NCBI GenBank assembly: GCA_040876345.1
Contig: JBBDPM010000006.1
Location: forward strand, 70,803-134,802
DNA length: 64,000 nucleotides
Direction: 5' to 3'
DNA from: Candidatus Woykebacteria bacterium
GTDB taxonomy: Bacteria > Patescibacteriota > Microgenomatia > Woykebacterales > RBG-16-39-9b
A model generated the notes under the pieces. That model was not told the DNA's origin and did no database searches. It worked only from the letters and a program-made list of their open reading frames with translations. The translations under genes were made by a program, and so were the position numbers. This document shows positions 4,356-52,536 of the stretch, piece by piece. How positions within the stretch are numbered: the first letter of the stretch is position 1; each line of letters begins with the position of its first letter.

Positions 4356-4904
4356 ATGTCACAAATTTTTTTCGAAAAGCAAAGTGCGCAAGGTCAAACC
4401 CCGACTCGTAAGCGAACCTTTATCACGATAACTGCCGTAATTTTGGGCCTTCTAGTTATAGTTGTGGCGGGATATTTCGTTCGTAAAGAGTCAAGTGTTA
4501 CCGGCAAACCAGAGCAAGCCGTCTCCAAAATGCAAGAAAAGGGAAAAGTCACCACGGTGGAAACGCAAAACGGTCCTATAAAAATTGAGGAAGGTAAAGT
4601 GGCTGATGCTTTCCCAAAAGACGTTGCGATTTATGCAAATGCGAAGGTGGAAACTTCAACTGAGGCTTTCGACGGAGTCTCTCTTAAATTAAAAACAGCC
4701 GACAATGCTGATAAGATTACCGGGTTCTACAAAGACAAACTTTCAGAAAATGGTTGGACGGAAGTGGCCATAAATAATATGGAGGGCTCTTCCTTAATTA
4801 CCGCTAAAAAAGAAGGTCGAGAGCTTGTTATCACCTCAATATCAGAAGAGTCTAGCTCTGACACGTCTATCGCAATAGTAATTTTAAATCCCCAAAAAAC
4901 TTAA
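4356..4904 (+). CDS. membrane-anchored hypothetical protein
   Basis: 182 aa; N-terminal TM (ITAVILGLLVIVVAGYF) followed by a soluble domain. Confidence 0.45.
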   Translation: MSQIFFEKQSAQGQTPTRKRTFITITAVILGLLVIVVAGYFVRKESSVTGKPEQAVSKMQEKGKVTTVETQNGPIKIEEGKVADAFPKDVAIYANAKVETSTEAFDGVSLKLKTADNADKITGFYKDKLSENGWTEVAINNMEGSSLITAKKEGRELVITSISEESSSDTSIAIVILNPQKT

Positions 4905-4956
4905 ACATTTTGACTTAAGGCCCTCTCAACAGCTAAAATAAATACAATGGCCCTTC

Positions 4957-5820
4957 ATGAAAATCCACAGTGTTGATCCAAAGATTTGTAAACAGGAGAT
5001 AGTTGGAATTTCGTATTCCGGCGGTGGAAATAGAGGTATAGTCCACATTGGAGCCTTAAGAGCTTTTTTGGAGAAGAAAATTATCCCAACTCACATAGCC
5101 GGAGTCTCGGCTGGTGCTTTTGTAGCCGCTTTTCACGCGTATGATCCTCATACATTTAATTCTTTTACTGATCTAAAAATTCTTTTCTCCTATGTAAACA
5201 AAGCTTTTATTGGCCTTTCCGTTCCCCAAATTCTAGGAAAGCTCATCACCCAAGGATTGGGCGCAAAGAGCCTAGGAGACTCAAAGAAAATAGAGGCAAT
5301 TTTAGAAAAAAGGCTCCCGTTTAGAACCTTTGCGGGTCTCAAAGTACCGTTATTTATTGGGGCAACAAACGTTGAGTCTGGTCAAGACACCTGGTTTACT
5401 GAGGGGGAAATTATCCCTGCCTTGCTTGCGTCTGGGGCTACACCGGGAATTTTTCCACCAGTAGAAATTGGCGGGGAAGTCTACATTGATGGGGGAGTAA
5501 CCGACAATTTACCCCTTTTTAGGCTTTCCAAAGAGGGCTGCGGGGTAATCTACGCCGTAAATGCCGGCTATTCTGGAGAGAACAAAAAACCACCAAAAAA
5601 TTTCTTGGAGGCAATTGTCGATGCACGTGACATTGCCCAATATCAGACGAGTCGCTACGAAATAGAGCTAATCAAATGTTTGTACCCTGGAATAAAAATC
5701 ATCCCAGTTGAACCAAGAGCCGGCCTCAAAATGACCCCCTACGACTTCACCCCAGAAAAGGCCGATGAAGTAATCGAAGAAAGTTACCAAAGGACAAAGG
5801 AGATTTTGGATAAAAATTAA
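4957..5820 (+). CDS. patatin-like phospholipase (copy 1)
   Basis: SGGGNRG oxyanion box, GVSAG (GxSxG) nucleophile elbow, IDGGVTDNLP (DGG) motif. Confidence 0.8.
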   Translation: MKIHSVDPKICKQEIVGISYSGGGNRGIVHIGALRAFLEKKIIPTHIAGVSAGAFVAAFHAYDPHTFNSFTDLKILFSYVNKAFIGLSVPQILGKLITQGLGAKSLGDSKKIEAILEKRLPFRTFAGLKVPLFIGATNVESGQDTWFTEGEIIPALLASGATPGIFPPVEIGGEVYIDGGVTDNLPLFRLSKEGCGVIYAVNAGYSGENKKPPKNFLEAIVDARDIAQYQTSRYEIELIKCLYPGIKIIPVEPRAGLKMTPYDFTPEKADEVIEESYQRTKEILDKN

Positions 5821-10697: not shown

Positions 10698-11774
10698 ATG
10701 AGAATTGCACAACTAGCTCCTTTAATAGAACGGGTACCGCCTAAAAGATACGGTGGTACTGAACGAATCGTCCATTATCTGACCGAAGAATTAGTAAAAA
10801 GAGGTCATAGTGTAACCCTTTTTGCTTCTGGAGACTCTGAAACTAAGGCCAAGCTAGTGTCCTCAGCATCCCATTCCCTTAGGTCAATGTACACTTCTGA
10901 AGAAGCGGCCTTCACCATGCTAAACGTCGCCAAGGTATACAAGAGGGGAGAGGAATTTGACATAATCCACAATCATTCTGACTATTACGCTTTTCCAGCA
11001 GCCTACTCTTCCCAAACCCCAACGGTAACAACTTTCCACGGCGCTTTTACTCTGGAAAACAAAAACATCTACGATGAGTATAAAGACCTAAATTTTGTCT
11101 CCATTTCAAATTCCCAGAGAAAAGGACAACCATCATTAAACTGGCGCTCAACAATTTATCACGGTATTCCAGTCGAAAAATTTCCATTCAAAGAAAATCA
11201 TAAAGACTATCTTTTATTTGTCGGCCGAATATCCCTTGAAAAGGGGACTCACATCGCTATGGATATTGCCATGTCATTAGATAAAGAACTCATTATGGCC
11301 GCTAAGCTAGACAAATATGACGTCGACTACTTTAATAAATACGTTGCTCCCCGTCTTAGTAACGGAAAGATTCGCTGGGTTGGAGAAGTCGATGATAAAG
11401 AAAGGAATAAGTTGATGGCGGAAGCTTCCTGCCTCTTGCACCCGGTCACTTGGAGTGAGCCTTTTGGCCTGGGCATGATCGAAGCTATGGCGACCGGCTG
11501 CCCAGTAATCGCCTTCAACAAAGGCTCAATCCCCGAAATAATAATTGATAAGAAAACTGGCTTTATTGTAAAAGAAGAAAAGGAAATGATGAAAGCGATA
11601 GAAAAGATCGGCTCTATCTCAAGAAAAAGGTGCCGCGCCCACGTCGAAAAGAATTTTAATTTAAAAGGAATGGTAGATTCTTACGAAAAATTGTATTATG
11701 AAATTATAAATGGGGGACCAAACAAGCGAGAACCAAAATCAACCGCAAAAGAGCGAACTAGAATCCCTGTATAA
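10698..11774 (+). CDS. glycosyltransferase family 4 (GT-B, group 1)
   Basis: EPFGLGMIEAMATGCPVIAFNKGSIPEII (E-x7-E motif); N-terminal GGTERIV... Confidence 0.8.
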   Translation: MRIAQLAPLIERVPPKRYGGTERIVHYLTEELVKRGHSVTLFASGDSETKAKLVSSASHSLRSMYTSEEAAFTMLNVAKVYKRGEEFDIIHNHSDYYAFPAAYSSQTPTVTTFHGAFTLENKNIYDEYKDLNFVSISNSQRKGQPSLNWRSTIYHGIPVEKFPFKENHKDYLLFVGRISLEKGTHIAMDIAMSLDKELIMAAKLDKYDVDYFNKYVAPRLSNGKIRWVGEVDDKERNKLMAEASCLLHPVTWSEPFGLGMIEAMATGCPVIAFNKGSIPEIIIDKKTGFIVKEEKEMMKAIEKIGSISRKRCRAHVEKNFNLKGMVDSYEKLYYEIINGGPNKREPKSTAKERTRIPV

Positions 11775-13023
11775 CCTTGCCCATAAGGCAATCCTCGAAC
11801 TCGAAACTCCTTACGGAATCAATGCTTCAGGAAAAGAAGATCGATTTTCCGCTTTCTTTGGCAGAGACTCAATGATAACCTCCTTGAAACTCTTGAGAGT
11901 CTACAAGCGAAACAGAGATAAAGCTTTCTTCAGAATAATTACTAAATGTATCGAAACGGCGGTAAAACTCCAAGGAAAAAGAGTCAACCCCTTGTCTGGC
12001 GAAGAAACTGGAAAAATAATCCACGAATACAGAAAGAGCGGTTATGAGCATTTAGTAAGCCACCGAAATCCTTGGTACTTATACCCTGATAAAACCCTGC
12101 GAAATTACGACTCCATAGACTCAACCCCACTTTTTTTAATTCTGGTCGGTGAATTTTATAAATACACCAAAGATCAAGAATTCTTACAACAAATTCTACC
12201 AAGCGTTGGTGATGCATTTTTCTGGATTAATAACTACGGACATAAGAGGAGAGACGGTCTATTTTTAGAGTACCTACTGCAAAGATCAGACTCTTACGGA
12301 GGTTTGGTGAACCAGGGCTGGATGGATAGCCCCGACTCAATATTGATAAGCGGGGAGTCTCCAAAAGAACCAATTGCATTGGTCGAAGTGCAAGGCTACT
12401 ACTTTAAAGCCTTGAAGCTCTGGGCGTCAATTTACGAAAAAATCGATTCAGAAAAAAGTCGTGACTATCAGAAAAAAGCCCAAGATCTGAAAAAAACTTT
12501 TAACGAACTTTTCCTTCTTAAGACCGAGGAATTAAACTTTTTTGCCCAAGCTATTTTTGGAAGCAAGGCGCTTATTCTCGAAAGAAGGTCAAGCCCAGGG
12601 CATTGCCTGTGGGCTTCTTATGAAGAGGGTGGTAAATTTGAATCCATAATCGATGATAAATTTATACCCGACGTGGTAAAGAGACTTATGAGACCAGATC
12701 TTTTTTTACCTGGTGCCGGCATCCGCACTCTTACGACAAAGTCTAAATTTTTTAACCCTTTGAGCTATCATAATGGTTCTATCTGGCCCTTTGACAATGG
12801 GCTGGCCGCAGAAGGTTTTAACAACTTTGGCTTTTCTAATGAAGCAAAAAAAGTAAGAGACGCCGTGCTTTTGGCAATAAAACACTTTGGCACACCAGTC
12901 GAACTTTATTGCGCCAATTTAGATGGCGCCCTTAGTGAATACAAGGAGGAAGCTGGTCGTCACGGCACACTGGTGCAAGCTTGGACCGCCGCTACTATTC
13001 TTGATTTCACAACGGACTATTAA
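11710..13023 (+). CDS. amylo-alpha-1,6-glucosidase/GDE_C-like glycoside hydrolase
   Basis: 437 aa; FFGRDSMITSLKLL motif typical of debranching-enzyme-like (alpha/alpha)6 barrel hydrolases; overlaps upstream GT4. Confidence 0.6.
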   Translation: MGDQTSENQNQPQKSELESLYNLAHKAILELETPYGINASGKEDRFSAFFGRDSMITSLKLLRVYKRNRDKAFFRIITKCIETAVKLQGKRVNPLSGEETGKIIHEYRKSGYEHLVSHRNPWYLYPDKTLRNYDSIDSTPLFLILVGEFYKYTKDQEFLQQILPSVGDAFFWINNYGHKRRDGLFLEYLLQRSDSYGGLVNQGWMDSPDSILISGESPKEPIALVEVQGYYFKALKLWASIYEKIDSEKSRDYQKKAQDLKKTFNELFLLKTEELNFFAQAIFGSKALILERRSSPGHCLWASYEEGGKFESIIDDKFIPDVVKRLMRPDLFLPGAGIRTLTTKSKFFNPLSYHNGSIWPFDNGLAAEGFNNFGFSNEAKKVRDAVLLAIKHFGTPVELYCANLDGALSEYKEEAGRHGTLVQAWTAATILDFTTDY

Positions 13024-25463: not shown

Positions 25464-27326
25464 CTATTTACCGTTTGAATCAGGGGCGTGAGTAAGGCCA
25501 AGCTCTTTAAACTTATCAAACTCTGGCTCAATCTTTTCTCCTTTTACCGGTATGCTAAAACTAAAAGTACTGCCGACCCCAGGAGTTGACTCTACCCAGA
25601 TTTTTCCTTTATGCATCTCCACAATTGCCTTAGATATGTAAAGCCCAAGACCAGTGCCTTTAGATCCTTGTTCAAGAACACCTGAGACTCTAAAGAATTT
25701 GGTGAAAAGTTTGGGTAGGGCATCAGGTGGTATCCCTTCCCCAGTATCTTTAACATAGGTAACTACGTGATCTCCATCAAGACCGGAGGATACTTCAACG
25801 CTTCCACCGGCCTCAGTGTGAGTAAGGGCATTATCAATTAGATTGTACAAGACTTCACTAATTCTAAATTTGTCGACGTAAATTTTTGGTAATTTTTTTT
25901 CTGGGGTCTTAAAATATATATCGATCTCTCTTCCTTTAGCCCTGACGAGATAAGTGGTTACAATGCTTGAAACAAGTTCCTCCCAATCGACGGAGGATTT
26001 TTCAAGCTGCATTGCTCCTCTTTCAATCCGAGAAACTGACAAAAGATTTTCCACTAGAGCCTCAAGTTGATTAGATGAGATAAAGGCTTTATCTAAGAAA
26101 GAGCTCTGTTCTTCACTAATCTTGCCTTTTACCTCTTCCTGAAGTACCGAAAGATAGCCTCTAATTGAAGTGAGGGGGGTACGAAGTTCGTGGGCAGCGA
26201 TTGAGACAAAATCAAGTTTCATTTGTTCGAATTCTTCCTCTTTAGCTAAGTTCCGGGCTAAACCAACGATAGAGATAAGCCCACCAATATCCTTCAAAGA
26301 AACCCCTGAGAAACTGACAGGTACCGTTTTCCCTTCCTTAGTTTTAAACTTTGTTTTAAAATTTAAAACTAAGTCTTTTTCCCGCAAAGGCTTAAGTACA
26401 ACTTCCCTAAAATCGTTCCAAGTCTCATCATCTGGCATAATTCTTTGAATGTTTGCTCCAATAAGTTCATTCTTTTTCAGGCCGATTAGATCAATGGTGG
26501 CTTTATTAACTTGTTCAATTAATTGATTGGGCCGAATAACTAAAAGGGCTTCGGAGATAGTGTCGATAATTGTGCTGGCAGCAAGAGTAGGACTGACAAC
26601 AAATAAGCTGTAGCGAATTATTGTGTAGGTGACGCTAATAGTCATCGCCGTTGTCAGAATTATTGCAATTGGCACTATTTGAATTCCAAGGATTGGAAAA
26701 ATTGCATCGGTGAAAATTCCGCCAATAATAGGGATTAAAAAAGCACCCATTATAAAAAGAGCCTGTCTTCTTTTAATTAAGTCACTCGCACCTAAGTAAA
26801 ACCTTGTTAAAAGCACAACTGAGGCCGTTAAAAATAAAATAAATAAGAGAGTGAATACTTCAAAAAAGCTACCAAGAGGGGTAATACTCCATCCGTAATA
26901 AACTCGATGATGAGCCGAAATATCGTTATTTATTATAAGGTTAGTATTCCAAGAAAAAAACAATACTAGTATAAATGGGCCAAAGATAAGAAGTTGATTA
27001 AATCTATTTTTCAAAATATTTTCTTGCCCGACAAAATGTAAAGCAAAGCCGAAAAGCACCGGGGTAACTAAAATCCACCCCGGCCTGCCTACATAATCCC
27101 AAAAAAGTGAAGCGATTTGACTAGCACTGTTGCGATCTAAAAATTCTGAGATTCCCCAGATAATAAGAAGTATAAGAACTAAGATGAACCAATTAGTAGA
27201 TTCATTCTTTGGACCTTTTGCCCGAACTAAAACTAGGAGAAATAGGTTAATTATTACCGAAAGAAGAGAGGTTAGGGAAAACACGTTCCACTGAAAATCG
27301 AAAATTAGGGAAAGGTCAGTAAACAT
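25464..27326 (-). CDS. sensor histidine kinase (7TM N-terminal sensor, PAS, HisKA, HATPase_c)
   Basis: FVSIAAHELRTPLTSIRGYLSVLQEE (H-box), G-boxes GTGLGLYISKAIVEMH. Confidence 0.85.
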   Translation of the reverse strand: MFTDLSLIFDFQWNVFSLTSLLSVIINLFLLVLVRAKGPKNESTNWFILVLILLIIWGISEFLDRNSASQIASLFWDYVGRPGWILVTPVLFGFALHFVGQENILKNRFNQLLIFGPFILVLFFSWNTNLIINNDISAHHRVYYGWSITPLGSFFEVFTLLFILFLTASVVLLTRFYLGASDLIKRRQALFIMGAFLIPIIGGIFTDAIFPILGIQIVPIAIILTTAMTISVTYTIIRYSLFVVSPTLAASTIIDTISEALLVIRPNQLIEQVNKATIDLIGLKKNELIGANIQRIMPDDETWNDFREVVLKPLREKDLVLNFKTKFKTKEGKTVPVSFSGVSLKDIGGLISIVGLARNLAKEEEFEQMKLDFVSIAAHELRTPLTSIRGYLSVLQEEVKGKISEEQSSFLDKAFISSNQLEALVENLLSVSRIERGAMQLEKSSVDWEELVSSIVTTYLVRAKGREIDIYFKTPEKKLPKIYVDKFRISEVLYNLIDNALTHTEAGGSVEVSSGLDGDHVVTYVKDTGEGIPPDALPKLFTKFFRVSGVLEQGSKGTGLGLYISKAIVEMHKGKIWVESTPGVGSTFSFSIPVKGEKIEPEFDKFKELGLTHAPDSNGK

Positions 27327-27363
27327 TATCTAATTAAATGATATCAATTAATATACTTAAAAT

Positions 27364-29661
27364 CTAGGAAGCTTTTTTACCGTTTTTGACAAAACTTCTT
27401 TTGACCCTTGGAGCAAGAACTAACGCCCCTGATGCAGCTGGCAAAGTCTCCTTAGACTCCCCAACACTAGATTCTTCTGCTTTTAGCGGAATGCTAAAGC
27501 TAAAAGTACTGCCCTTACCAAGGGTGGATTTTACCCAAATTCGGCCTGAGTGCATCTCAACAATTGCTTTAGATATGTAAAGCCCAAGACCAGTGCCTTT
27601 AGATCCTTGTTCAAGAACACCTGAGACTCTAAAGAATTTGGTGAAAAGTTTGGAAAGGGCTTCTTCAGGTATACCTTGACCAGTGTCTCCAACACTGGTT
27701 ACTAGATCTCCACCTTTAACTTCGATAGTCACCGTTACTTTTCCGCCCGGGCCCGTATAACTAAGAGCGTTGCCGATCAAATTGGAAAGAACTTCACCCA
27801 TCCTGAATTTATCGGCAAGGGCCGCCACACCTTTTTCCTTTTCTTGTACGAACTCAAGAGTGATACCTTTCTGTCTTGCTTGATCTAAATAGTTAGTGAC
27901 CACCTCGTTCACAAGTTCAACCCAATCAACAGAGCTTTTTTGAACTTTCATTCTGCCTCTTTCAATTCTGGAGACCGACAAGAGATTTTCCACCAAACCG
28001 GCAAGTTGGGTTGAAGAAATAAACGCCTTACTCAAAAATGAAAGCTGCTCCTCACTCACCTTGCCTCTAATTTCTTCCTGAAGAACAGAGAGGTACCCCC
28101 TAATTGAAGTTAAAGGCGTTCTAAGCTCGTGTGCTGCCATAGAAACAAAGTCTAGTTTCATCTCTTCAAGCTCATGTTCTTGCGATACATCGTGCATAGT
28201 AACTATTGCCCCCAAATCTATATCTTCGTTCTCCGCGATTGTGGATACAGTCAAATCAACGTAAAATGGGCTACCGTCTCTTTTAACCACCTTAATATTC
28301 TTCTTGGTAGCAAGTATTCGATCTTCAGCAACCCTTTCTCTCGGCAGAAGATCTAATATTGAAAGTCGATTTTCTCCTTCAACCATGTAGATAACTTCGT
28401 CGGCTCCTTTTCCTAAAACTTTATCTTGATCAATTTCCAGCTGCCTCTCCATGGACGGGCTAAAAAGCACTAATCTTCCTCCTTTATCCACCGCAAAAAC
28501 CCCATCAACAATTCCACCCAAAGTAACTCCCATCTTGTTTCTCTCGGCGGTTATGCGATTTATCAGTTTTCTCACTTCTCGTATGTCCCTGGCTAAACCA
28601 ACAATCCCTAGAAGATGGCCTTTATCTAAGAGTGACGTTGCCGAAAAACTAACCGGTATTCGGATACCTCCTTTTGTTTTAAAATCTATTTCCAAACCAG
28701 CAACCGATCCTTTTCTCTTAAGGGGTACTAAAACTCTTTTTAAAAACTTATCCCAAGACTCAACATCGGGAATTATCCAGCGCACATTTTTTCCTAAAAG
28801 CTCACTTTCTTTAAACCCAAGAAGAGACAGGATTGATCTATTTACCTGCTCAATTGTGTGATAAGGACCAATAACTAACAAAGCTTCTGACATCGTGTCG
28901 ATTATGGTATCTGAGGTAACTTTGGGACTGATGACAAAGAGAGAGTATTTAACAATTCCATAGGTCATTATGATGCTAAGAGCTGAGGTGAAAAGGATTG
29001 CCACCGGCAAAACTTCAATCCCCAATATAGGCAAAAATGCATCGGTGAGTGAGCCGCCAACAATAGGTATTAAAAGGGCCACTATTGTGGTTAGTGTTTG
29101 TTTCTTCCTTATTGGGTCAGTGGTTTTAAAATAAAATCTGGTCAGTAAGGCCAGGGAGCCAATTAGAAAAGCCTCCAGCCAAACTATAAAAACCCAAAAG
29201 TAGTCGGCCACCGGGGAAATATTCCATCCCCAAGGACTTCTGCCGATATCAGAAAGGTGGTTGTTAGATATTAAATTAGTATTCCAAGAAAGAAATAGAA
29301 ACAAACAAGGCGGGCCAAAAATAAGAATTTGAGCCAATTTGTTCTTTAAAAGGGCCTCTTTTCCGATAAAATTCAGCGTAAAACCAAAAACTAAGGTAGG
29401 AATAAAAATCCATCCGGGCCGACCAAGATACCCCCAGAAAAGTGACGCTTGCGGACTCGCGCTAAGGCGATCTAGAAATTCTGAAGCACCCCATAAAATA
29501 AGAGCAAGGAGAAAGACGGTGAACCAATTATTTGCTTCACTCCTTGCCCCCTTGGTTTGAACCCAAATTAGCAAAGTCAGGTTAATTATAATTGCCGAAA
29601 GTGAAAAAAGGGCAAAATAATTAAACCTAAAATCAATTATCAGGGCAAGGTTTTCAAACAT
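27364..29661 (-). CDS. sensor histidine kinase paralog (7TM sensor, two PAS, HisKA, HATPase_c)
   Basis: FVSMAAHELRTPLTSIRGYLSVLQEE; same N-terminal multi-TM domain as 25464-27326. Confidence 0.85.
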   Translation of the reverse strand: MFENLALIIDFRFNYFALFSLSAIIINLTLLIWVQTKGARSEANNWFTVFLLALILWGASEFLDRLSASPQASLFWGYLGRPGWIFIPTLVFGFTLNFIGKEALLKNKLAQILIFGPPCLFLFLSWNTNLISNNHLSDIGRSPWGWNISPVADYFWVFIVWLEAFLIGSLALLTRFYFKTTDPIRKKQTLTTIVALLIPIVGGSLTDAFLPILGIEVLPVAILFTSALSIIMTYGIVKYSLFVISPKVTSDTIIDTMSEALLVIGPYHTIEQVNRSILSLLGFKESELLGKNVRWIIPDVESWDKFLKRVLVPLKRKGSVAGLEIDFKTKGGIRIPVSFSATSLLDKGHLLGIVGLARDIREVRKLINRITAERNKMGVTLGGIVDGVFAVDKGGRLVLFSPSMERQLEIDQDKVLGKGADEVIYMVEGENRLSILDLLPRERVAEDRILATKKNIKVVKRDGSPFYVDLTVSTIAENEDIDLGAIVTMHDVSQEHELEEMKLDFVSMAAHELRTPLTSIRGYLSVLQEEIRGKVSEEQLSFLSKAFISSTQLAGLVENLLSVSRIERGRMKVQKSSVDWVELVNEVVTNYLDQARQKGITLEFVQEKEKGVAALADKFRMGEVLSNLIGNALSYTGPGGKVTVTIEVKGGDLVTSVGDTGQGIPEEALSKLFTKFFRVSGVLEQGSKGTGLGLYISKAIVEMHSGRIWVKSTLGKGSTFSFSIPLKAEESSVGESKETLPAASGALVLAPRVKRSFVKNGKKAS

Positions 29662-37412: not shown

Positions 37413-37441
37413 TTGACAAATTGGGTTTTCTTTCGGATAAT
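37413..37441 (+). promoter_or_regulatory. near-consensus sigma70 promoter TTGACA-17-GATAAT
   Basis: TTGACA 37413-37418, 17-nt spacer, GATAAT 37436-37441. Confidence 0.45.
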
Positions 37442-37517: not shown

Positions 37518-37532
37518 TTGATTGGAATAACA

Positions 37533-38117
37533 ATGGTTGAATATTTAAGTACACTCGGTGCAAAAGCTGCAACATCAAATAGAAGGTCCTTAAGGATACC
37601 AGCCTTCGTGAAAAAATTAAGAATTCCAATCATTATCTTTATCTTCCTCATTGTCTTAACCACCTTAGCTCTCTGGGCCCAATCAGGAATTAGTAGCAAA
37701 CCAGAGGCCAAAATAAACCAAGAATTCTCAATCCAAGCAAGAACTAAAGATAAGTTAAGAGTAAGAGATGCAACCCTAGCTATAAACTTAGTAGATGCTC
37801 AAGAAGCCGACAACTTATTGGTCCAGGGCAAAAGGGCAAGAACCAGAGACGGTAAAACTTTCCTTATTATAAATATGGAAGTAGAAAATTCCTACTCAGT
37901 CCCTTTATACACTTTTCCAGTTGATCTAATGAGGCTCGTTAGAGAAGATGGTAAAAAAGTTGCTCCAAGTGTTCACCAGGGGACAGTTGAAGTACGCCCA
38001 ATATCAACCAAGAAAAGCAATGTCGGGTTTGTCGTTGATCCAAGTGAAAAGAATTTCAAGATTGAATTTGGTGAACTAAACGATGAAAAGAAAATTTTAG
38101 ATATTTCTTTTAAATAG
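37533..38117 (+). CDS. DUF4352-like membrane-anchored protein
   Basis: N-terminal TM; ...RTRDGKTFLIINMEVENSYSVPLYTFPVDLMRLVREDGKKV resembles DUF4352 beta-sandwich domain; ATG 37533 preferred over TTG 37518. Confidence 0.5.
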   Translation: MVEYLSTLGAKAATSNRRSLRIPAFVKKLRIPIIIFIFLIVLTTLALWAQSGISSKPEAKINQEFSIQARTKDKLRVRDATLAINLVDAQEADNLLVQGKRARTRDGKTFLIINMEVENSYSVPLYTFPVDLMRLVREDGKKVAPSVHQGTVEVRPISTKKSNVGFVVDPSEKNFKIEFGELNDEKKILDISFK

Positions 38118-38120
38118 CTT

Positions 38121-38342
38121 ATGGTTGACGAATACTCAACGGACGAAATAAGCGAAGCATTAATAGCTACCATTAAAGAATCCTTGAACGGTAAGCAGTA
38201 CGGATCGGTCGAAATTTACATCGAGGGAGGGCGGGTGGCCCAAATTACTGAACGGGTAATAAAGAAAACGGCTAAACTTAACGAGACTCAAGACAAAAAA
38301 AGTGAAGTTGTTTATTGGAGACCGATAAAAAATCGTAAATGA
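38121..38342 (+). CDS. DUF2292 (YezD-like) small protein
   Basis: YGSVEIYIEGGRVAQITERVIKK matches YezD family core. Confidence 0.55.
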   Translation: MVDEYSTDEISEALIATIKESLNGKQYGSVEIYIEGGRVAQITERVIKKTAKLNETQDKKSEVVYWRPIKNRK

Positions 38343-38366
38343 CGCGTGTTAAAGTTAGATAGGGGA

Positions 38367-38396
38367 TTGACAAAGAATTTGAGGCTGACTTATAAT
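38367..38396 (+). promoter_or_regulatory. sigma70 promoter TTGACA-18-TATAAT
   Basis: TTGACA 38367-38372, TATAAT 38391-38396; 188 nt upstream of ATG 38585. Confidence 0.45.
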
Positions 38397-38584
38397 CATT
38401 AAGAAAGTAATATTCCTTGCCCAAGTAAAAACAAAATAATTTTGAGAGCCTACCTCCTGCCACATTAGGCTCTCAGGCCGACCGCAAACGGAGGCAGCTC
38501 TTCAAAAATGAAGTGGCTGCCTTTTTTGGTGTTAAAGATAATTTTTAAATTGATTTCTAATTAAACTCGAAAGGGGGTGAAAAA

Positions 38585-39685
38585 ATGGACAAGCAAAAAC
38601 TACTTTACGGTACAGCTAGTGCTTTTGCAGCACTTGCTTTCTCACTTACACCAGCCATCGCGACGGAGGCTTCGAACAGCCAAACTGGTCAAGACTCTGA
38701 CAACGATGCAACTGTTAATGTCTCCAACGACGTAGACATATTGCAGGAGAACGACTTAGACGTCGACAACAATATTAATATCTACGTTGGAACTGGAGGC
38801 AACAGCGCTGACAAGAACACTGGTGACGGTTCTGTCAAAACAGGAGATGCAAAGAGCTCTGTGAGTTTGAAAACCATGGGGAACAAGAACTCACTTTCCG
38901 TCAGCATGTCTGACAACGGCGGATCTTCTGCTTCTAACGACAACACTGGTCAAGACTCTGACAACGATGCCGATGTAGATCTTGATAATGATTTTGATTT
39001 GACTCAAAAGAATGACGCTGATGTCGACAATGATGTTGACGTAGACGTTGACACAGGAGACAACAGCGCTGACAAGAACACTGGTGACGGTTCTGTTTCC
39101 ACTGGAGACGCAACCGCTTCTGTTTCAATTGAGACTATACTCAATGAAAACGAAGCTGAAGTCGATCTTGGAAACGGCGGTGATGCATCTGCTTCCAACA
39201 GTCACACTGGTCAAGACTCTGACAACGCTGCAAGTGTAGACGTTGACAACGACGTAGATATCTTGCAAGACAACGATCTTGATGTCGACAATGATGTTGA
39301 CGTAGACGTTGACACAGGAGACAACAGCGCTGACAAGAACACTGGTGACGGCAATGTTGACACCGGAGATGCTGAAGTCGATGTAGAAGTTTCTACTAGT
39401 GGCAACAGCAACTCTGCTGATGTTAATGTTCCATCAGATTCTGATGTTGCGGTAGAAAACGACAACACTGGTCAAGACTCTGACAACGATGCAAGTGTAG
39501 ACGTTGACAACGACGTAGATATTTCTCAAGAGAATGATTCTGACGTTGACAACGATGGTGATGTTGACGCCGACACAGGCGACAGCAGTTCCGATAAAAA
39601 CACTGGTGATGGTGATGTCGAAAGTGGTGGCTCAGACGTTGACGTTGAGGTATCAACCGATCTTAACAACAACGAGCTGAACTAA
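38585..39685 (+). CDS. secreted Asn/Asp-rich tandem-repeat protein (4 x 87 aa)
   Basis: SD AAGGGGGTGA; signal peptide; four 261-nt repeats (ACTGGTCAAGACTCTGA recurs at 38684, 38945, 39206, 39467), each with ...TGQDSDND...TGDNSADKNTGDGSVxTGDA. Confidence 0.7.
   Translation: MDKQKLLYGTASAFAALAFSLTPAIATEASNSQTGQDSDNDATVNVSNDVDILQENDLDVDNNINIYVGTGGNSADKNTGDGSVKTGDAKSSVSLKTMGNKNSLSVSMSDNGGSSASNDNTGQDSDNDADVDLDNDFDLTQKNDADVDNDVDVDVDTGDNSADKNTGDGSVSTGDATASVSIETILNENEAEVDLGNGGDASASNSHTGQDSDNAASVDVDNDVDILQDNDLDVDNDVDVDVDTGDNSADKNTGDGNVDTGDAEVDVEVSTSGNSNSADVNVPSDSDVAVENDNTGQDSDNDASVDVDNDVDISQENDSDVDNDGDVDADTGDSSSDKNTGDGDVESGGSDVDVEVSTDLNNNELN
38675..39685 (+). repeat. coding tandem repeat, 4 copies, period 261 nt
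   Basis: exact 261-nt spacing of conserved 17-mers. Confidence 0.8.
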
Positions 39686-39823
39686 CACCGGTACTTATCT
39701 CGGGCTCCCTCGTCCCGACTCACTTGGGACAGGGACCCGGATAAGTGAAATTTAAAAACCAAATAAAATTGCAGACAGACAAGAGTCCAAGTAAATTCTT
39801 GCCTGTCTACAAAAAATAAAAAT

Positions 39824-41890
39824 ATGATTAAAAAAATCTTTTCAAAAAACTTAATAATTTTATTAGCAGTTTTTGCAATTATTCTTTATCCACTATTAAC
39901 TTCTAATCAGGCAGTTTTCGCTGCTCCTGAAACACCTCAGACACCAGACTTACCATCAACTGCGACTCAGAATCCAGGCGACCAGATCATCCAAAACCCA
40001 AATATTGAAGAGCCCCAACCTCAAACTCCAGAGGTCAGCCCAGAAGAAGCCGAGAGGCAACGTCAAAGAGAAGAAAGGCGGGCAGCAAGAAGGCTTGCCA
40101 GAGAACAAGCAGCGCTAGCTGCGATAAATAGCCAGCCTTCCCAAGAACCAAGTGTTGGCTCTCCAAACCCGGCCGTAACAAATATTGGAACAGCTGAAAA
40201 CTCAGGCGAGGAAGTCAGCTTGGAAACGCTTTCCGCCGCCAATTCTGACACTGGATCTGACTCCGAGAACAATGCAAATTCTAACCTAGAAAATAATTTG
40301 GGGACCGAGATCAACAACGACTTAAATGTTGATAACGGCGCGTATATAAATGTCGACTCCGGTCACAACGGTGCTGACAAAAATACCGGGGACGGGGAAG
40401 TTGTCTCTGGTGATGCCGATCTCATGCTTACCGCCCTGAACGTTGGCAACAACGTTGGTGTTGGTACCCAGGTATTTAACATCTTTGATGATCAAACAGG
40501 AGACGTAATACTCGATTTTGACGATGTAACTCCAGTTTCTCTTGGAACTCTCTGCAGCGACTCAACTAGTGCTAATCAAACAACCGGGTCTTATTCTGAA
40601 AATGATGCCAGCACCACTTGCACCAGCAACAATACAATATTAGTAGATAACAACGGTAACATCGTTAACGATTATTATTTAAGCGCTGACACTGGCCACA
40701 ATAGCGCTAGCAAAAACACGGGGGATGGATCAGTTACCACGGGTGATGCCAATGTTGTTCTAAACGTAATTAATTTCTTTAATAACACTTTTCTGGGAGG
40801 AGCCGGTGAACTCTTACTTGGAATTGTAAATGTTTTCGGAAACCTTTCCGGTGATATTGTCCTTAATATGCCCAGTTCCGGGGATGAATTCTTTGTCGCT
40901 GGCACGGATGGCAACGCAGCTAATTCTACAACCGGGTCTTACTCGGATAATAACGCTGGCACTAACACAACAAATAATACTAATGTTTCTTTAACAAACA
41001 GCGCCGATATATTAAACAACCTTATGCTTTTTGGTGACACTGGCGGAAATGATGCCTCGAAAAACACTGGTTCAGGATCGGTATTGACCGGGGGCGTAAA
41101 TGCAAATCTTAACGTCACAAACATTAGTAACACAAACGCCGTCGGGGATGCAGGTACTCTTTGGCTTGTGCTGGTAAACAATCTAGGTGAGTGGACAGGC
41201 CAAATATGGGGCTTTGACAGCACCGGCACAGCATCTCCCTTCTTCACATTTTCGATCGGGGAAGATGGCTCATTCAACGCGGGCACCGGTGAAGACTCTA
41301 CCAATAATGCCTCCACCTCAACAACCAACAATACAGGCATCGATGTAAATAATAGGGCGAATCTGACCAACAATGTCTACATAAACGCGAACACCGGCGG
41401 AAATAGCGCTTCAATGAACACAGGCTCCGGAATAATAAAATCAGGGGACGTAAATGTAGCCGCAAACATTATGAACATTCTAAACAACAACTTCGTCGCT
41501 TCGCGATTTGTAATTACGATTGTCAATGTGTTTGGCAGCTTCTTCGGGGACGTTTTCCCAGGTGGGGAAGAACAAAAGGCGGATGTTGAGGCCAATGAGG
41601 ACACTTCGGTTGCAACCGGGCCAGGAAAAACTGTTGTAGCTAGCAATAATAATCAAGGAACAGGGTTTGGTGGCTCTAAATCAAACATCTCTGCCAACAA
41701 CGACAACCAAGGATCGGCTCTATCCACAAACATTTTAGGGCCCGATGAAAGTAGAGTAGAAGGTATAACAAAAGTAATCGGAAAAGACAGTAAGAACATA
41801 ACCGACTATTGGTGGATTGCTATCCCATTATTATTAATAGCCGCCGGTACTGCCGCCGCAAAAAGGAGGCAACTATGGAAGGCAGGCTAA
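39824..41890 (+). CDS. large secreted repeat protein (Pro-rich and coiled N-region, 4-5 longer repeats with TGxN(S/D)ASKNTG(D/S)G core, C-terminal TM + KRR)
   Basis: 688 aa; signal/TM at N-terminus; repeats ADTGHNSASKNTGDGSVTTGDANVVLNV...; C-terminal WWIAIPLLLIAAGTAAAKRR. Confidence 0.7.
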   Translation: MIKKIFSKNLIILLAVFAIILYPLLTSNQAVFAAPETPQTPDLPSTATQNPGDQIIQNPNIEEPQPQTPEVSPEEAERQRQREERRAARRLAREQAALAAINSQPSQEPSVGSPNPAVTNIGTAENSGEEVSLETLSAANSDTGSDSENNANSNLENNLGTEINNDLNVDNGAYINVDSGHNGADKNTGDGEVVSGDADLMLTALNVGNNVGVGTQVFNIFDDQTGDVILDFDDVTPVSLGTLCSDSTSANQTTGSYSENDASTTCTSNNTILVDNNGNIVNDYYLSADTGHNSASKNTGDGSVTTGDANVVLNVINFFNNTFLGGAGELLLGIVNVFGNLSGDIVLNMPSSGDEFFVAGTDGNAANSTTGSYSDNNAGTNTTNNTNVSLTNSADILNNLMLFGDTGGNDASKNTGSGSVLTGGVNANLNVTNISNTNAVGDAGTLWLVLVNNLGEWTGQIWGFDSTGTASPFFTFSIGEDGSFNAGTGEDSTNNASTSTTNNTGIDVNNRANLTNNVYINANTGGNSASMNTGSGIIKSGDVNVAANIMNILNNNFVASRFVITIVNVFGSFFGDVFPGGEEQKADVEANEDTSVATGPGKTVVASNNNQGTGFGGSKSNISANNDNQGSALSTNILGPDESRVEGITKVIGKDSKNITDYWWIAIPLLLIAAGTAAAKRRQLWKAG

Positions 41891-42708
41891 AAAAGCTTAC
41901 CTTTAAAATTTCTTTAACAACTGCCGCTTTCGGAGCATCGCTTTTAATTGCTCCCGGAGCACTTGCTCAAACTGCCCAAAACCAAAGTACTGGAGCAGAC
42001 TCTAGTAATACCGCGGAGGTTAAGGTTGAAAATGATTTAAATGTGTCTTCAAATAACACTGCTAATATCAACAATAACCTTAAGATAAGCGCTAACACTG
42101 GTGGGAACAGCGCTTCGAAGAACACTGGAGACGGAACTGTTAAGACAGGCGACATAACCGGCCGTGTTAGCATTGTAAATGATGTTAACTCTAACAGTCT
42201 AAACGATTCGAACTTTGACTGCAGCAGTCTTTGCACGGTGAGTTGGGACATCAAAGCTTCAAACTCCCACACGGGTGCAGATTCTGAAAACAGCGCCACT
42301 GTGAACGTTGAGAACGATGTCGATATAACTCAGAATAACGACCTGGATATCGACAACAACTTAGACGCCGATCTTAACACGGGCGACAACGAAGCCGATA
42401 AAAACACTGGCGACGGCAGCGTGAAATCAGGCGATATAGACTTTGATGTCAGTATCGTAAACGAAGGGAATAACAACAGTATTGGTGGGCCGGTGGAAGA
42501 TCCAAAATCTCCACCACCAGCAGGACCAAAGACTCCAACACCTGGCAAGCCTTCCGAAAAAGGCAGGGTATTGGCAGCAACCAAAGGTCTACCCGTAACC
42601 GGTGGTAACCTACCAGTAGTGCCCGCTTTAGCTCTAATTTTGGCCGGACTCTTTTTAAGAAGGATGGAAGAAGTCTTAAGAGGCCGATTTCTTACCGAGA
42701 AAAGCTAA
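41875..42708 (+). CDS. LPXTG-anchored repeat surface protein (2 repeats, PT-rich stalk, LPVTG)
   Basis: SD AAGGAGG 41863-41869; signal peptide; ...NTGDNEADKNTGDGSVKSGD...; PPPAGPKTPTPGKP; LPVTGG + hydrophobic segment + RR. Confidence 0.7.
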   Translation: MEGRLKKLTFKISLTTAAFGASLLIAPGALAQTAQNQSTGADSSNTAEVKVENDLNVSSNNTANINNNLKISANTGGNSASKNTGDGTVKTGDITGRVSIVNDVNSNSLNDSNFDCSSLCTVSWDIKASNSHTGADSENSATVNVENDVDITQNNDLDIDNNLDADLNTGDNEADKNTGDGSVKSGDIDFDVSIVNEGNNNSIGGPVEDPKSPPPAGPKTPTPGKPSEKGRVLAATKGLPVTGGNLPVVPALALILAGLFLRRMEEVLRGRFLTEKS

Positions 42709-42732
42709 GATTTGATTCAACTCTTTAGTGAA

Positions 42733-42765
42733 AAGACCTCCGAGAACTCGGGGGTCTTTTCTTTA
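42733..42765 (+). terminator. rho-independent terminator after surface-protein cluster
   Basis: AGACCTCCGAG-AAC-TCGGGGGTCT stem followed by TTTTCTTT. Confidence 0.7.
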
Positions 42766-43096
42766 TCTGCCCCAATAGTTTGTATTCAGCTTCAATTTCT
42801 GCTAGAATATACAAGCTTTTGCCAGACCTTAAAGACAGCGAGGTAGTTGAAGGGGAGGGAGAACCTATGAAACCCAACAGATCCCTAATCAGGGTAAAGA
42901 ACCCCTGGAGATTGTTGACAGCTGAGATCACAGCTGTCTACCTGTCCCTAGTTCAAAGGAAAAGAATTGATTGAAATAGTAAAGAGGCCTTTTGGGGATG
43001 TTCTCAACATGGTGTTAAACGGAGAAATCACCCACACCGGAAGTGTAGTTTCAATTCTGAAAATTGCCCGCCTTAAAGGTTTATAGAACCTTTTGA

Positions 43097-43540
43097 TTAG
43101 ACCCAAGCACCTATAATTGCTCCCATAACGACAAATTCGATTAAGTGGCTTCCAACATTCAAGAGATAAAGATTCTTTGGCTTATCTTCAAAAGATGCGT
43201 GAACAAGCAATGTTGTTGCTACAAACCCTAGCCAAACCCAAAAACCAACAACTGCTCCTTCTTGCCAAGTACTAGCCTGTGCATAACTTGATATATAGGC
43301 AAGAACATAGGCAGTTACAAGAGCGGAGACGGCAGCAATAACCATTGCCTGGACAGCTCCTTTTCTCACACTCTCTTCTGTTTTTCCAACCAATTGTCTC
43401 CAAGTTTTACCAAAAAGTGGCCCATACCAAACAGAGCCAGTAACCATGCTAACAATAGCAGCTACAAGTATTGCAAGATAATTTACATCGACCGCTAGCA
43501 CATTTATCACCTCCTTTTTAACCCTCTCTAGATTTGACAA
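43097..43540 (-). CDS. DUF1761-like small membrane protein
   Basis: 147 aa, 4 TM. Confidence 0.4.
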   Translation of the reverse strand: MSNLERVKKEVINVLAVDVNYLAILVAAIVSMVTGSVWYGPLFGKTWRQLVGKTEESVRKGAVQAMVIAAVSALVTAYVLAYISSYAQASTWQEGAVVGFWVWLGFVATTLLVHASFEDKPKNLYLLNVGSHLIEFVVMGAIIGAWV

Positions 43541-49815: not shown

Positions 49816-52536
49816 TTAAGAGCCTCCCTTTGGAAAATTCTCAGCAACCACATTTTCTTTAGGTTCTTCCTCAAGGCTAGATTCCTGGCCGACTTGAGTT
49901 CTTTCAGACTTAGAAGGCAGCGGAAAATGCAATATTTCCACTTCCTCACCCTCCAGTAGCTTGGAGACGCTGGGGGTATTTTCCCGGTTGAATTCGGGTG
50001 GCTTTGGACTTTCTCCACCAAGTGTGGCCTCAGTCGAAACTTGGTAAATTTCTTTTTGTACAGGCTCCCCATCCACTGGTACTTCCTGCAATTTCTTCTC
50101 TTCCTGAACCGCCCAAGCGGGTGGTTCAGGAAGTTGGCCTGGACGAAACTTGGTCTCGGTCCACTTCTTGATAACTTTTTCCACTCTTTCCACAGGCTTA
50201 GAATAACTGGCTCTTGAAAAGCTAACCGCTTTGTCTCTTAAACCAGCCGCATCGGTAAATGGTGGTAGTGACCTAGCTGAGAAAGGTTGCGAAGCTTGAT
50301 CATCCACTTGAAGCTTTAAGTACATCTCATACCGACCCAGATTAATGATGTCATTTTCCAAGAAAATCGGTGTGAATTCCCTTTCTAAGAAGTGGGCGTC
50401 AGTTGGGCCAACTGTAAAACTAATAAGAGTACCCACGTTGCCAAAAATAGCGTCTTTAACAGCGTCTGGCATTTGCTCAATATATTGATGAGTCACTATA
50501 AGATCAAGACGATACTTTCTAGCCTCAGAAAGGACTACAGCGAAAGAATCAGTAGCAAAGTTCTGAAACTCGTCTGCGTAAAGGAAGAAATCTCGTCTAG
50601 ATTCCTCCGAGACATCAACTCGGCGCATCGCTGCAAATTGCAGCTGGGATACAATCATTGCCCCAAGCAGGGAAGAGTTATTCGTTCCGATTCTTCCGGC
50701 GGCAAGGTCTACGAAGAAGATTTTTCCAGAATTAATAATTTCATCAATCTTAATTGAACTTTTAGGTTGGCCAACTATATTCCTAATCAGCTCAGAGTTT
50801 AGAAACTGCCCGACTTTATTTTGGATTGGGCTAATCGCCTCGGTAATTAAACGCTCATTACCTTCCATTCTCGTATACTCATTATTCCAATAGGCTTTCA
50901 TTTGGGGATCACTAATTAAGCCAACGATATATTTTCGGTAATCTTTATCAGTGAGAAGCCTGGTTATTGATAAAAGAGACGTGTTGGGCACCTCAAGAAG
51001 AGTAAGGATGCTGTTTTTCAAGATGTATTCAAGACGAGGACCCCAGCTTTCGGCAAAGTATTTTTTGAATACATCGACTAAGGCATCTCCCATTAAAGTT
51101 CTCTGCCTTGGATCCACCATTTCAAGCATGTTAAGCGAGACTGGGTAGTCAGCGTCGGCTGGATTAAAGATAACCACATCGGAAAGCCTGTTTTCAGGAA
51201 CAAACTCCAACAGTTCATCAATAAGTTGCCCGTGCGGATCAAGGACAGCCACACCCTCACCGGCTCTCATGTCTTGGATAATCATATTCTTGATCAAAGT
51301 GCTTTTTCCGGTACCTGTTTTACCAATAATGTACATATGTTTTCTTCGATCGGGCTTCCTAATACCAAACTTAGTACTGGTGTCGCGAAAGATAGTCTCA
51401 CCGATGATAGTTGCTTTATCTGAGGGTAAATTAAGGGGTGGCTCCCCCTTTTTTGCTCTCGTCCAAGAAATTGTTGGCGTCTCAACTGAGATGTTCGGAA
51501 GGTGAAATATTGAAGCTAGCTCCTCAATGTTTAAAATATAGTCTCCCGATTCTCCCTCGGTAAAGAGCCTCCTTTGATAGGCGGTAAGAAGGGATGCTGG
51601 ACCAGCGGCCTCAGGATCGGCCACAAAACCATTTAAACTTGCCGTTGTGAATTGTTTAAATGAAGCTACGATAGAAGCGAGTTTTTGGGCTGCTTCCGCC
51701 TGAGTGCTTCCAAGAGTGACAATTCTAACTCTTGCCTCAAACCCAAGTTTAGAAAGTTTGTTTTCAATCATTTTAAGATCCAGCTCTTGACCGGCCGAAA
51801 GCCTGGGAGGAGGAGCTGGACGGGCCAGCTCAACTGGCTGGGGCCCACTAACCATATAAGGGAAGATATTCGCCCCTACTGAAACGATGTGTTTACCGAC
51901 ATCTACGATAATATCTCTAGGATTAACACTAACTGGGGAGATACCTTCCCGAACCATTTTTACATATTCATGGCCCCTTTCCTGCCAAAAATCGTCTACC
52001 GGCCTAACTAAATACTGCACCCAAACTTGCTCACCAACTCTTTGGGTTGCGATTGCACTGGTAACAGCCGCCAGAGGGTCCACTTCAAAATCTCTAAATG
52101 TCTTAATTGGGAAAGTAAAATCTTTTGCTAGAGTAAGCTCAGTGGCGGCTGCTTTGGAGGTTGACCCAACGCTCTTGGTGTAATCCAAGGCTTCGCGAAT
52201 CTCCGCATCTGGATATTGGGCATAAACTTGCGATTCAACAAAATTCTTAAAATGCCTTGGTGTAAAAACGTAAAAATTTACTCCATCAACTGAAGAGGCT
52301 ATCTCAAGGGATAGGTGCTCTTGAACTCCTGGAGTAAAGCGCAAAAGTCCGTGTAAAGAAGCAAACATTTGCTCAGCGGCTATAGGAAGTCTTTCGTTCT
52401 CGCGGGGAAGTTGAATAGACAGAAGTACACCCTCATCGATGTCGGGCTTTCTAACTCCTATCTCTAGCTTTCTTGCTGCTCTCCATGCCAGCAAGAAAGA
52501 GAAAAAAATTACGGCGGCAATTATTATTACGAACAT
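49816..52536 (-). CDS. membrane-anchored P-loop NTPase of the TraG/TraD/VirD4 (T4SS coupling protein)/HerA-like superfamily
   Basis: N-terminal TM; Walker A YIIGKTGTGKST, VAVLDPHGQL, Walker B FFLYADEFQNF, ...THQYIEQ; disordered C-terminus. Confidence 0.55.
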   Translation of the reverse strand: MFVIIIAAVIFFSFLLAWRAARKLEIGVRKPDIDEGVLLSIQLPRENERLPIAAEQMFASLHGLLRFTPGVQEHLSLEIASSVDGVNFYVFTPRHFKNFVESQVYAQYPDAEIREALDYTKSVGSTSKAAATELTLAKDFTFPIKTFRDFEVDPLAAVTSAIATQRVGEQVWVQYLVRPVDDFWQERGHEYVKMVREGISPVSVNPRDIIVDVGKHIVSVGANIFPYMVSGPQPVELARPAPPPRLSAGQELDLKMIENKLSKLGFEARVRIVTLGSTQAEAAQKLASIVASFKQFTTASLNGFVADPEAAGPASLLTAYQRRLFTEGESGDYILNIEELASIFHLPNISVETPTISWTRAKKGEPPLNLPSDKATIIGETIFRDTSTKFGIRKPDRRKHMYIIGKTGTGKSTLIKNMIIQDMRAGEGVAVLDPHGQLIDELLEFVPENRLSDVVIFNPADADYPVSLNMLEMVDPRQRTLMGDALVDVFKKYFAESWGPRLEYILKNSILTLLEVPNTSLLSITRLLTDKDYRKYIVGLISDPQMKAYWNNEYTRMEGNERLITEAISPIQNKVGQFLNSELIRNIVGQPKSSIKIDEIINSGKIFFVDLAAGRIGTNNSSLLGAMIVSQLQFAAMRRVDVSEESRRDFFLYADEFQNFATDSFAVVLSEARKYRLDLIVTHQYIEQMPDAVKDAIFGNVGTLISFTVGPTDAHFLEREFTPIFLENDIINLGRYEMYLKLQVDDQASQPFSARSLPPFTDAAGLRDKAVSFSRASYSKPVERVEKVIKKWTETKFRPGQLPEPPAWAVQEEKKLQEVPVDGEPVQKEIYQVSTEATLGGESPKPPEFNRENTPSVSKLLEGEEVEILHFPLPSKSERTQVGQESSLEEEPKENVVAENFPKGGS

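Follow-up and report, generated by a model that had tools for sequence, protein, structure and literature searches.

The window analyzed here is a 64-kb stretch of a Candidatus Woykebacteria metagenome-assembled genome (candidate phyla radiation, CPR; Patescibacteria). It contains three adjacent, co-directional genes, called P1, P2, and P3 below, whose putatively exported products are built from a single repeat unit (Table 1). Ten units are present in total, distributed 4+4+2 over P1, P2, and P3, and they share one core of ~75 amino acids. Units were delimited by cutting the proteins at the motif N-x-x-T-G-x-[DY]-S-x-N. P1 yields four units of 87 aa, the last shortened to 75; the four units of P2 span 101-118 aa and the two of P3 74-94 aa. 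All ten align gaplessly over ~75 residues, of which 15 are invariant (N1, T4, G5, S8, N10, A12, N26, N32, G41, N48, T49, G50, G52, G57, and N70).

At the nucleotide level, the direct 261-nt repeats of P1 begin at positions 38682, 38943, 39204, and 39465 and are 72-77% identical, and an 85-nt core is found eight times over the three genes. Tandem Repeats Finder reported nothing across 38000-43500 because the copies are too diverged. Autocorrelation of the P1 protein at a lag of 87 gave z = 23.7 relative to shuffles, with lags of 2, 8, and 16 also significant, and a hidden Markov model of the unit, searched in the window, matched P1, P2, and P3 only. A first-pass annotation of this DNA had described tandem repeats in P1 and longer or variant units in P2 and P3, and both the repeat search and the gapless unit alignment agree with that description. 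Its regular expression for the core fared less well: the exact form fits about five of the ten copies, with P1 unit 4, P2 units 1, 3, and 4, and P3 unit 2 deviating at one to three positions, whereas a relaxed form fits all ten.

Copy number appears to be held constant in P1, as 80 homologues of 362-434 aa keep four units. Mean identity among the units of one P1 protein is 0.48 (0.67 for the P1 of the window) vs. 0.38 between units at the same position in different proteins; units at different positions in different proteins are slightly below the latter, at 0.335. These values indicate concerted evolution, or intragenic homogenization by gene conversion, of P1 units at a copy number fixed at four. 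An assembly artifact as the source of the tandem copies is ruled out because the copies are diverged, the four-unit architecture is conserved, and concerted evolution has proceeded at a fixed copy number. Note that the internal similarity of the P1 of the window (38675-39682) exceeds that to its two closest orthologues, P0121 and P0122, which lies between 0.54 and 0.64.

Table 1. Predicted features of the P1-P2-P3 cluster and of the two genes preceding it (positions in the window).
Feature	Position	Strand	Remarks
P1	38585-39685	+	366 aa; predicted secreted, anchorless
P1 signal peptide	N-terminus of P1	+	MDKQKLLYGTASAFAALAFSLTPAIA
P1 units	38675-38935, 38936-39196, 39197-39457, 39458-39682	+	
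P2	39824-41890	+	688 aa; predicted membrane-tethered
P2 signal peptide	39824-39922	+	
P2 Pro-rich segment	39923-40039	+	
P2 Arg/Glu helix	40040-40132	+	residues 73-103
P2 units	40241-40573, 40574-40921, 40922-41275, 41276-41578	+	enlarged, each with an extra hydrophobic hairpin
P2 linker	41579-41797	+	~73 aa, Gly/Ser/Asn, low model confidence
P2 C-terminal transmembrane helix	41798-41863	+	followed by KRRQLWKAG tail
P3	41875-42708	+	277 aa; predicted wall-anchored via LPVTG
P3 units	41980-42261, 42262-42483	+	after N-terminal signal peptide
P3 stalk	42484-42588	+	P/T/K-rich, 35 residues
P3 LPVTG	42589-42603	+	followed by hydrophobic stretch and basic tail
Cluster promoter	38367-38396	+	TTGACA, 18-nt spacer, TATAAT; 12/12 match to sigma-70 consensus
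P1 leader	38397-38584	+	~190 nt; hairpins 38442-38476 and 38492-38522; Shine-Dalgarno site GAAAGGGGGTGAAA
Post-P1 hairpin	39692-39747	+	strong, GC-rich, directly 3' of P1 stop codon
Second intergenic hairpin	39769-39812	+	just 5' of P2 start
Cluster terminator	42730-42761	+	intrinsic; 14-bp stem, 7 GC pairs, T-run
DUF4352-like neighbor	37518-38117	+	199 aa, N-terminal transmembrane segment; Pfam PF11611, E 1e-4
DUF2292 (YezD-like) neighbor	38121-38342	+	73 aa; Pfam PF10055, 24.3 bits vs. cut-off 22

The three proteins differ in what surrounds their repeats. P1 consists of a signal peptide and its four units and nothing else; it has no anchor, capping region, or extra domain. Asp makes up 21.9% of P1, Arg is absent, and the net charge is -82, the median for the family being -69. 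In the P1 family alignment, most homologues end in a tail that is acidic, amphipathic, and hydrophobic (e.g., FEFDWDxLLxWLGL or WWMLFFGYSS), and many have Cys pairs located between units. Neither is present in the Woykebacteria subfamily, to which the P1 of the window belongs. The retention or capping of P1 seems to differ by lineage. P2 has a counterpart of 100% identity at NCBI, WD231_03625, annotated as a 'hypothetical protein' on a 586-kb contig of Candidatus Woykebacteria. Its ending, a transmembrane (TM) helix followed by RRR, is conserved in all P2 homologues examined, and LPxTG was found in none of 31 homologue C-termini. The listed open reading frame of P3 begins at a TTG at 41809, but the credible start is the ATG at 41875, which lies behind an AAGGAGG Shine-Dalgarno site and overlaps the end of P2 by 16 nt. 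The P3 C-terminus reads LPVTG-GNLPVVPALALILAGLFL-RRMEEVLRGRFLTEKS, which, together with the N-terminal signal peptide, is the layout of a sortase substrate, and P3 is the sole credible LPXTG-type protein in the window; P1 and P2 lack the motif. Seven of eight P3 homologues examined have LPxTG, as LPVTG (L001, P0339, and P0356), LPITG (L003), LPNTG (L007), or LPATG (L008 and L009), the exception being L004. The Pro-rich region, Arg/Glu segment, and TM helix with KRR that had been picked out in P2 at first pass are all present by sequence, as are the PT-rich stalk and LPVTG of P3. The signal peptides, the P2 TM anchor, and the P3 LPVTG support the prediction that P1, P2, and P3 are exported surface proteins. 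What the predicted gene products show is three exported paralogues with one shared module and three putative fates: free (P1), membrane-tethered (P2), and wall-anchored (P3).

Judged by its sequence, the repeat is explained by no catalogued family. Pfam-A searches with P1, P2, and P3 gave no match at E<=1, NCBIfam gave only a meaningless 7-bit match to ClfA, and neither P1, P2, nor the unit profile matched any PDB sequence; the earlier statement that the repeat could not be assigned to a known family is thus upheld. The unit profile was also searched against 1.84 billion representative proteins. With matches clustered at 50% identity, 2,913 clusters were found at E<=1e-3; the stricter limits of 1e-10 and 1e-30 are passed by 1,766 and 418 of them, respectively, and members carry 2-10 units per protein. 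Close homologues (~300 of P1 and ~180 of P2) are all 'hypothetical' and without a Pfam domain, save a few with dockerin. Extra domains in long family members are rare and of surface type (dockerin and DUF11). The named members found are all from the CPR, namely Woykebacteria, Woesebacteria, Daviesbacteria, Levybacteria, the Microgenomates group, the Parcubacteria group, and candidate division CPR2. Full-text searches combining Patescibacteria or CPR with LPXTG, sortase, curli, solenoid, and S-layer found no published description of the repeat family. The proteins are best classed as conventional in being beta-solenoid surface proteins with Sec, TM, and sortase targeting, and as unusual in their three-tier architecture and CPR restriction.

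An AlphaFold2 model of P1 (81-sequence alignment) had a mean predicted local distance difference test score (pLDDT) of 88.4 and a predicted template modeling score (pTM) of 0.78 and is an all-beta repeat. The model of P2 (75 sequences) had a pLDDT >90 in each repeat core, with disordered linkers and two modeled terminal helices. The invariant columns of the P1 and P2 families are nearly all Asn and Gly, and P1 shows a strong period-2 alternation and an 8/16-residue sub-period, features that match a solenoid built on Asn ladders and Gly turns. Foldseek against the PDB returned nothing significant. Structural neighbors include the beta-helices of autotransporters, two-partner secretion proteins, tailspikes, RsaA, SRRP, and PfbA. 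The beta-helix or beta-solenoid proposed at first pass is therefore supported as a fold class by the models and the sequence periodicity, but a close structural relative is absent. The flattened right-handed beta-helix of SufD and SufB resembles the predicted fold in geometry only, at ~9-12% sequence identity, and these are cytoplasmic Fe-S assembly proteins from an unrelated context. The Firmicutes LPXTG beta-solenoid adhesins Limosilactobacillus (L.) reuteri SRRP-BR and S. pneumoniae PfbA belong to another repeat family without sequence similarity, and each is a single large protein, whereas the cluster encodes a trio of free, membrane-anchored, and wall-anchored paralogues.

By its composition, P1 might also be mainly a polyanion, dissolved or associated with the wall, with a role in cation binding or buffering or in the binding of ice or mineral, and not a structural subunit. 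An Asp content of 22%, the net charge of -82, and three TGD turns per unit are in keeping with such a role. We nevertheless regard it as highly improbable, because Pfam found neither the RTX nonapeptide nor a HemolysinCabind match and because it leaves the conserved coupling of P1 to anchored paralogues and sortase, described below, unexplained. The cluster proteins likewise differ from Ca2+-dependent beta-rolls and beta-helices such as RTX repeats and region RIV of the Marinomonas antifreeze adhesin: Pfam and NCBIfam searches detected no GGxGxDxUx motif (PF00353), the sub-period is 8 residues rather than 9, and export is predicted to use Sec signal peptides rather than type I secretion.

Signals of expression surround the cluster. 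The promoter, structured leader, terminator, and intergenic hairpins noted at first pass were all found, and the TTGACA and TAnAAT hexamers are invariant across the aligned upstream regions of five loci (the related loci are described below). The P1 leader folds with z = -2.1, and its second hairpin ends in a T-run. A leader block, GCCGACCGCAAACGGAGGCAGCTCT...GCTGCCTTTT, is kept in the window, L007, and L005, the three closest loci, and the Shine-Dalgarno site of the leader is conserved in four of five. Rfam assigned no family to the leader or intergenic region, with only a chance miRNA match at E 0.73. Within the leader (38442-38528), the hairpin GGCAGCTCTTCAAAAATGAAGTGGCTGCC is followed by TTTTTT, 3' of the consensus promoter; this hairpin and T-run may serve to attenuate transcription or to stabilize the mRNA at its 5' end. 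The 138-nt spacer between P1 and P2 folds at -52.7 kcal/mol (z = -8.5) into two hairpins. A hairpin occupies the same post-P1 position in six of six loci tested (the window and its relatives L001, L003, L005, L007, and L009), with z from -4.8 to -8.6 over all six and from -4.8 to -8.3 in the relatives; its structure is conserved across loci and its sequence is not. This hairpin probably terminates transcription in part or stabilizes the 3' end of the mRNA. The consensus promoter, the conserved post-P1 hairpin, and the P2/P3 overlap suggest that P1 is made in excess; the signals fit high expression of P1 and coupled expression of P2 and P3.

Highly expressed S-layer genes have strong promoters and long structured leaders, and the consensus promoter and leader of P1 are of this kind. 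We therefore considered an S-layer-like two-dimensional coat, i.e., a cation-dependent lattice of P1 held by P3 on the wall and by P2 on the membrane, which overlaps conceptually with the assembly that we favor below. The very acidic nature of P1 is in its favor, as is the statement in the literature that the CPR envelope is unresolved (PMC5220378). Three points make a coat of this type improbable. Pfam and NCBIfam detected no SLH, CWB2, or other known anchoring module in P1-P3; P1 is small, and its model shows an elongated repeat instead of the several domains of a lattice former; and the best structural neighbors are fiber or rod proteins.

The order P1-P2-P3 is kept in at least seven distinct loci (L001, which is the same place as L006, L003, L004, L005, L007, L008, and L009), down to ~35% identity and including Levybacteria and unclassified Patescibacteria; a profile scan of genome contigs with a 16-sequence alignment gave at least five loci. 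Woykebacteria-type loci (L001, L003, L005, and L007) read ClpB-like / DUF4352-like / (DUF2292) / P1 / P2 / P3, with no sortase adjacent. The distant loci L004, L008, and L009, in which P2 is ~35-43% identical to that of the window, read DUF4352-like / DUF2292 / P1 / P2 / P3-like / sortase, except that the contig of L008 (Patescibacteria) begins just before P2 and genes further upstream are unseen. P2 and P3 overlap or abut in all loci. Across Microgenomates, the conserved layout is DUF4352-like / DUF2292 / P1 / P2 / P3, and the linkage of P1, P2, and P3 is tight and ancient. One explanation of the cluster is that P1, P2, and P3 are independent, paralogous, rod-like beta-solenoid adhesins comparable to SRRP or PfbA, clustered by tandem duplication, with P1 as a released soluble form. 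The variation in unit number across the family (2-10) and the existence of free-standing, three-unit secreted members are consistent with this, and that P1-P3 co-assemble at all is our deduction. However, the strict 1:1:1 gene order and the fixed 4/4/2 units across very divergent lineages, the translational coupling of P2-P3(-sortase), and the conserved P1-proximal hairpin argue for a co-functioning set over redundant paralogues in genomes of ~0.6-0.9 Mb, and we think independent adhesins fairly unlikely.

Two of these loci have peculiarities of their own. L007 lies on a 915,171-bp chromosome (OZ246414.1) labeled 'uncultured Gammaproteobacteria bacterium' and holds a full Woykebacteria-type block at 52-66% protein identity; the label is probably wrong. 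In L004, the P1-like gene (4412-5639) is broken up into pieces of 49-96 aa that lie in several frames and have repeat motifs, reflecting either a pseudogene or assembly frameshift errors.

No sortase had been seen near the cluster at first pass, and this is true of the 64-kb window, where tblastn with a CPR sortase gave no match. In all three distant loci, however, a 185-aa sortase gene directly follows the P3-like gene, with an overlap of 1-11 nt. A sortase family is reported to be almost universal among Microgenomates (Méheust et al., PMC6744442), and a complete Microgenomates genome 'encodes a sortase' (PMC7143001). A lone P3 without an adjacent sortase is thus no anomaly but a lineage-specific loss of linkage, and linkage of the cluster to a sortase appears to be either ancestral or recurrent. 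The cluster-linked sortases pass the TIGR01076 cut-off and fail every class-specific cut-off (35-64 bits vs. 160 for class C), the best sub-threshold likeness being to class C or D. The P3-like protein of L004 has no canonical LPxTG, although a sortase comes next. Beside the sortase of the Levybacteria locus L009 (10552-11109) lie two further genes (11221-11583 and 11596-12543, both on the minus strand): one codes for a secreted protein of 120 aa that has one copy of the repeat, the other for a protein of 315 aa whose GGxGxD repeats are of the calcium-binding RTX type (NCBIfam Ca_rpt/RTX matches).

The position of the sortase directly 3' of P3 in distant loci, its sub-threshold class C/D likeness, and a three-gene layout superficially like a pilus islet might together suggest a sortase-polymerized pilus of the Gram-positive type, with P1-P3 as covalently linked pilins. 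LPxTG is present only in P3, though; a sorting signal is absent from P1, and the end of P2 is simply a TM helix and RRR. Pfam finds no CnaB/Cna or Ig-like domains and there is no pilin motif, the Lys of the repeat-core loop is not conserved in the P1 family (consensus DNTGG), and the linked sortases fail all class-specific cut-offs. Because there is a single LPXTG protein and there are no pilin domains, we rejected this explanation and give it almost no credence.

The explanation that we favor, with about even confidence, is that the cluster encodes a sortase-linked beta-solenoid surface assembly of Microgenomates-type CPR, with P2 and P3 as bases and P1 as the major, non-covalently bound subunit. 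All three proteins would be exported by Sec. P2 would be held at the membrane by its C-terminal TM helix behind a long, flexible 73-residue linker, and sortase would attach P3 to peptidoglycan through LPVTG behind the 35-residue Pro-rich stalk, so that both would present their solenoid modules N-terminally, at the far ends of flexible tethers formed by their C-terminal parts. P1, which is anchorless, uncapped, and highly acidic, would bind the P2 and P3 modules and itself non-covalently, by strand-to-strand stacking at uncapped solenoid ends, by lateral contacts, or by both, and divalent cations would probably neutralize the Asp/Asn-rich faces. In this picture, P2 and P3 would nucleate or form the base, and P1 would be the major subunit, of a fiber or coat serving envelope structure or attachment. 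Co-assembly, stoichiometry, cation dependence, and the biological role of P1-P3 are what we infer from the predicted proteins and their conserved arrangement.

Several points weigh against such an assembly. Contact of P1 with P2 or P3 is deduced rather than observed. Alignment of the P1 family against Escherichia (E.) coli CsgA by hhalign gave a probability of 0.4%. An amphipathic C-terminal tail, present in most P1 homologues, is missing from Woykebacteria P1, so that the mode of P1 attachment may differ. Rung geometry, rung length, and end capping were read from DSSP strings and sequence only. Attenuation after P1 is conjectural because the post-P1 hairpin has no clear U-tract, and the probable ranking of expression (P1 >> P2 ~ P3) was derived from expression signals only.

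The closest functional parallel to the proposed assembly is curli (CsgA/CsgB, Curlin_rpt PF07012). Both have secreted subunits made solely of imperfect Asn/Gly-rich repeats and an anchorless major protein paired with cell-bound paralogues of the same operon, and the TGGNSA turn of the cluster repeat resembles, by eye only, the GxGNxA turn of curlin. There is, however, no detectable sequence homology to the curlin repeat, whose signature is Sx5QxGxGNxAx3Q (no Pfam match at E<=1 and the hhalign value above). One unit has 87 aa and a sub-period of 8/16 residues vs. ~22 aa in curlin, the host is a monoderm CPR bacterium, and anchoring is predicted to be by a TM helix and sortase. No CsgG-, CsgE-, or CsgF-like genes were found among the neighbors of the cluster in the window or in related loci. 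Functionally similar as it may be, the cluster falls outside the curli family, and amyloid-type polymerization of its proteins is hypothetical. A more far-reaching version would make the cluster the main proteinaceous surface structure of Microgenomates-type CPR, a curli-like, non-covalent beta-solenoid fiber or coat nucleated on P3 and P2. It would be an independently arisen functional analogue of CsgA/CsgB in monoderms, would explain some of what is not yet understood of the CPR envelope or appendages, and would serve to attach cells to hosts or surfaces; we consider this rather unlikely.

A large share of bacterial diversity belongs to the CPR/Patescibacteria, most of which are uncultured, and their epibiont life depends on surface structures. 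To our knowledge, molecular identification of CPR surface structures has been achieved only for type IV pili and, very recently, for Pam pili. The pilins of Pam adopt Ig-like folds, undergo donor-strand exchange with chaperone-like proteins, and are encoded near ATP synthase genes (bioRxiv 10.64898/2026.03.03.709456). Like the P1-P3 cluster, Pam is a CPR-restricted, formerly unannotated surface system with a conserved operon that occurs in Microgenomatia; the P1-P3 system differs in that its proteins are solenoid repeats, its anchors a TM helix and LPXTG, and its gene neighborhood another. The cluster is of interest because it puts forward a concrete candidate, open to test, for a major surface component of bacteria with an envelope explicitly described as unresolved (PMC5220378). 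We propose P3 as the principal substrate of the sortase that is near ubiquitous in Microgenomates. The repeat, as modeled, would be a new and naturally modular beta-solenoid scaffold available in free, membrane-anchored, and wall-anchored versions, and the curli-like fiber or coat, if true, would account for part of the unexplained CPR envelope or appendages.

Of the flanking genes, two accompany the cluster. A DUF4352-like homologue lies directly 5' of it in L001, L003, L004, L005, L007, and L009, and DUF2292 is at the matching position in L004, L005, L007, and L009. The DUF4352-like assignment is weak, at 23 bits vs. a cut-off of 25.9 for PF11611, i.e., below the Pfam cut-off. The pair stands immediately 5' of P1 (L004 3014-4002, L009 4699-5641, and L007 8665-9479), even in the most distant loci, and in the window (37518-38342) it has its own promoter-like site at 37413-37441. 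The two proteins may be assembly or regulatory partners of the cluster. The other neighbors are ordinary housekeeping genes, including those for a ClpB-like ATPase, RuvC, YebC, TreT, and histidine kinases. Between them, the regions 25464-29661 and 49816-52536 (both on the minus strand) hold two tandem paralogous histidine kinases (HisKA_7TM N-terminal sensor region, PAS) and a 906-aa TrwB/VirD4-like coupling-protein ATPase, which are not linked to the P1-P3 cluster.

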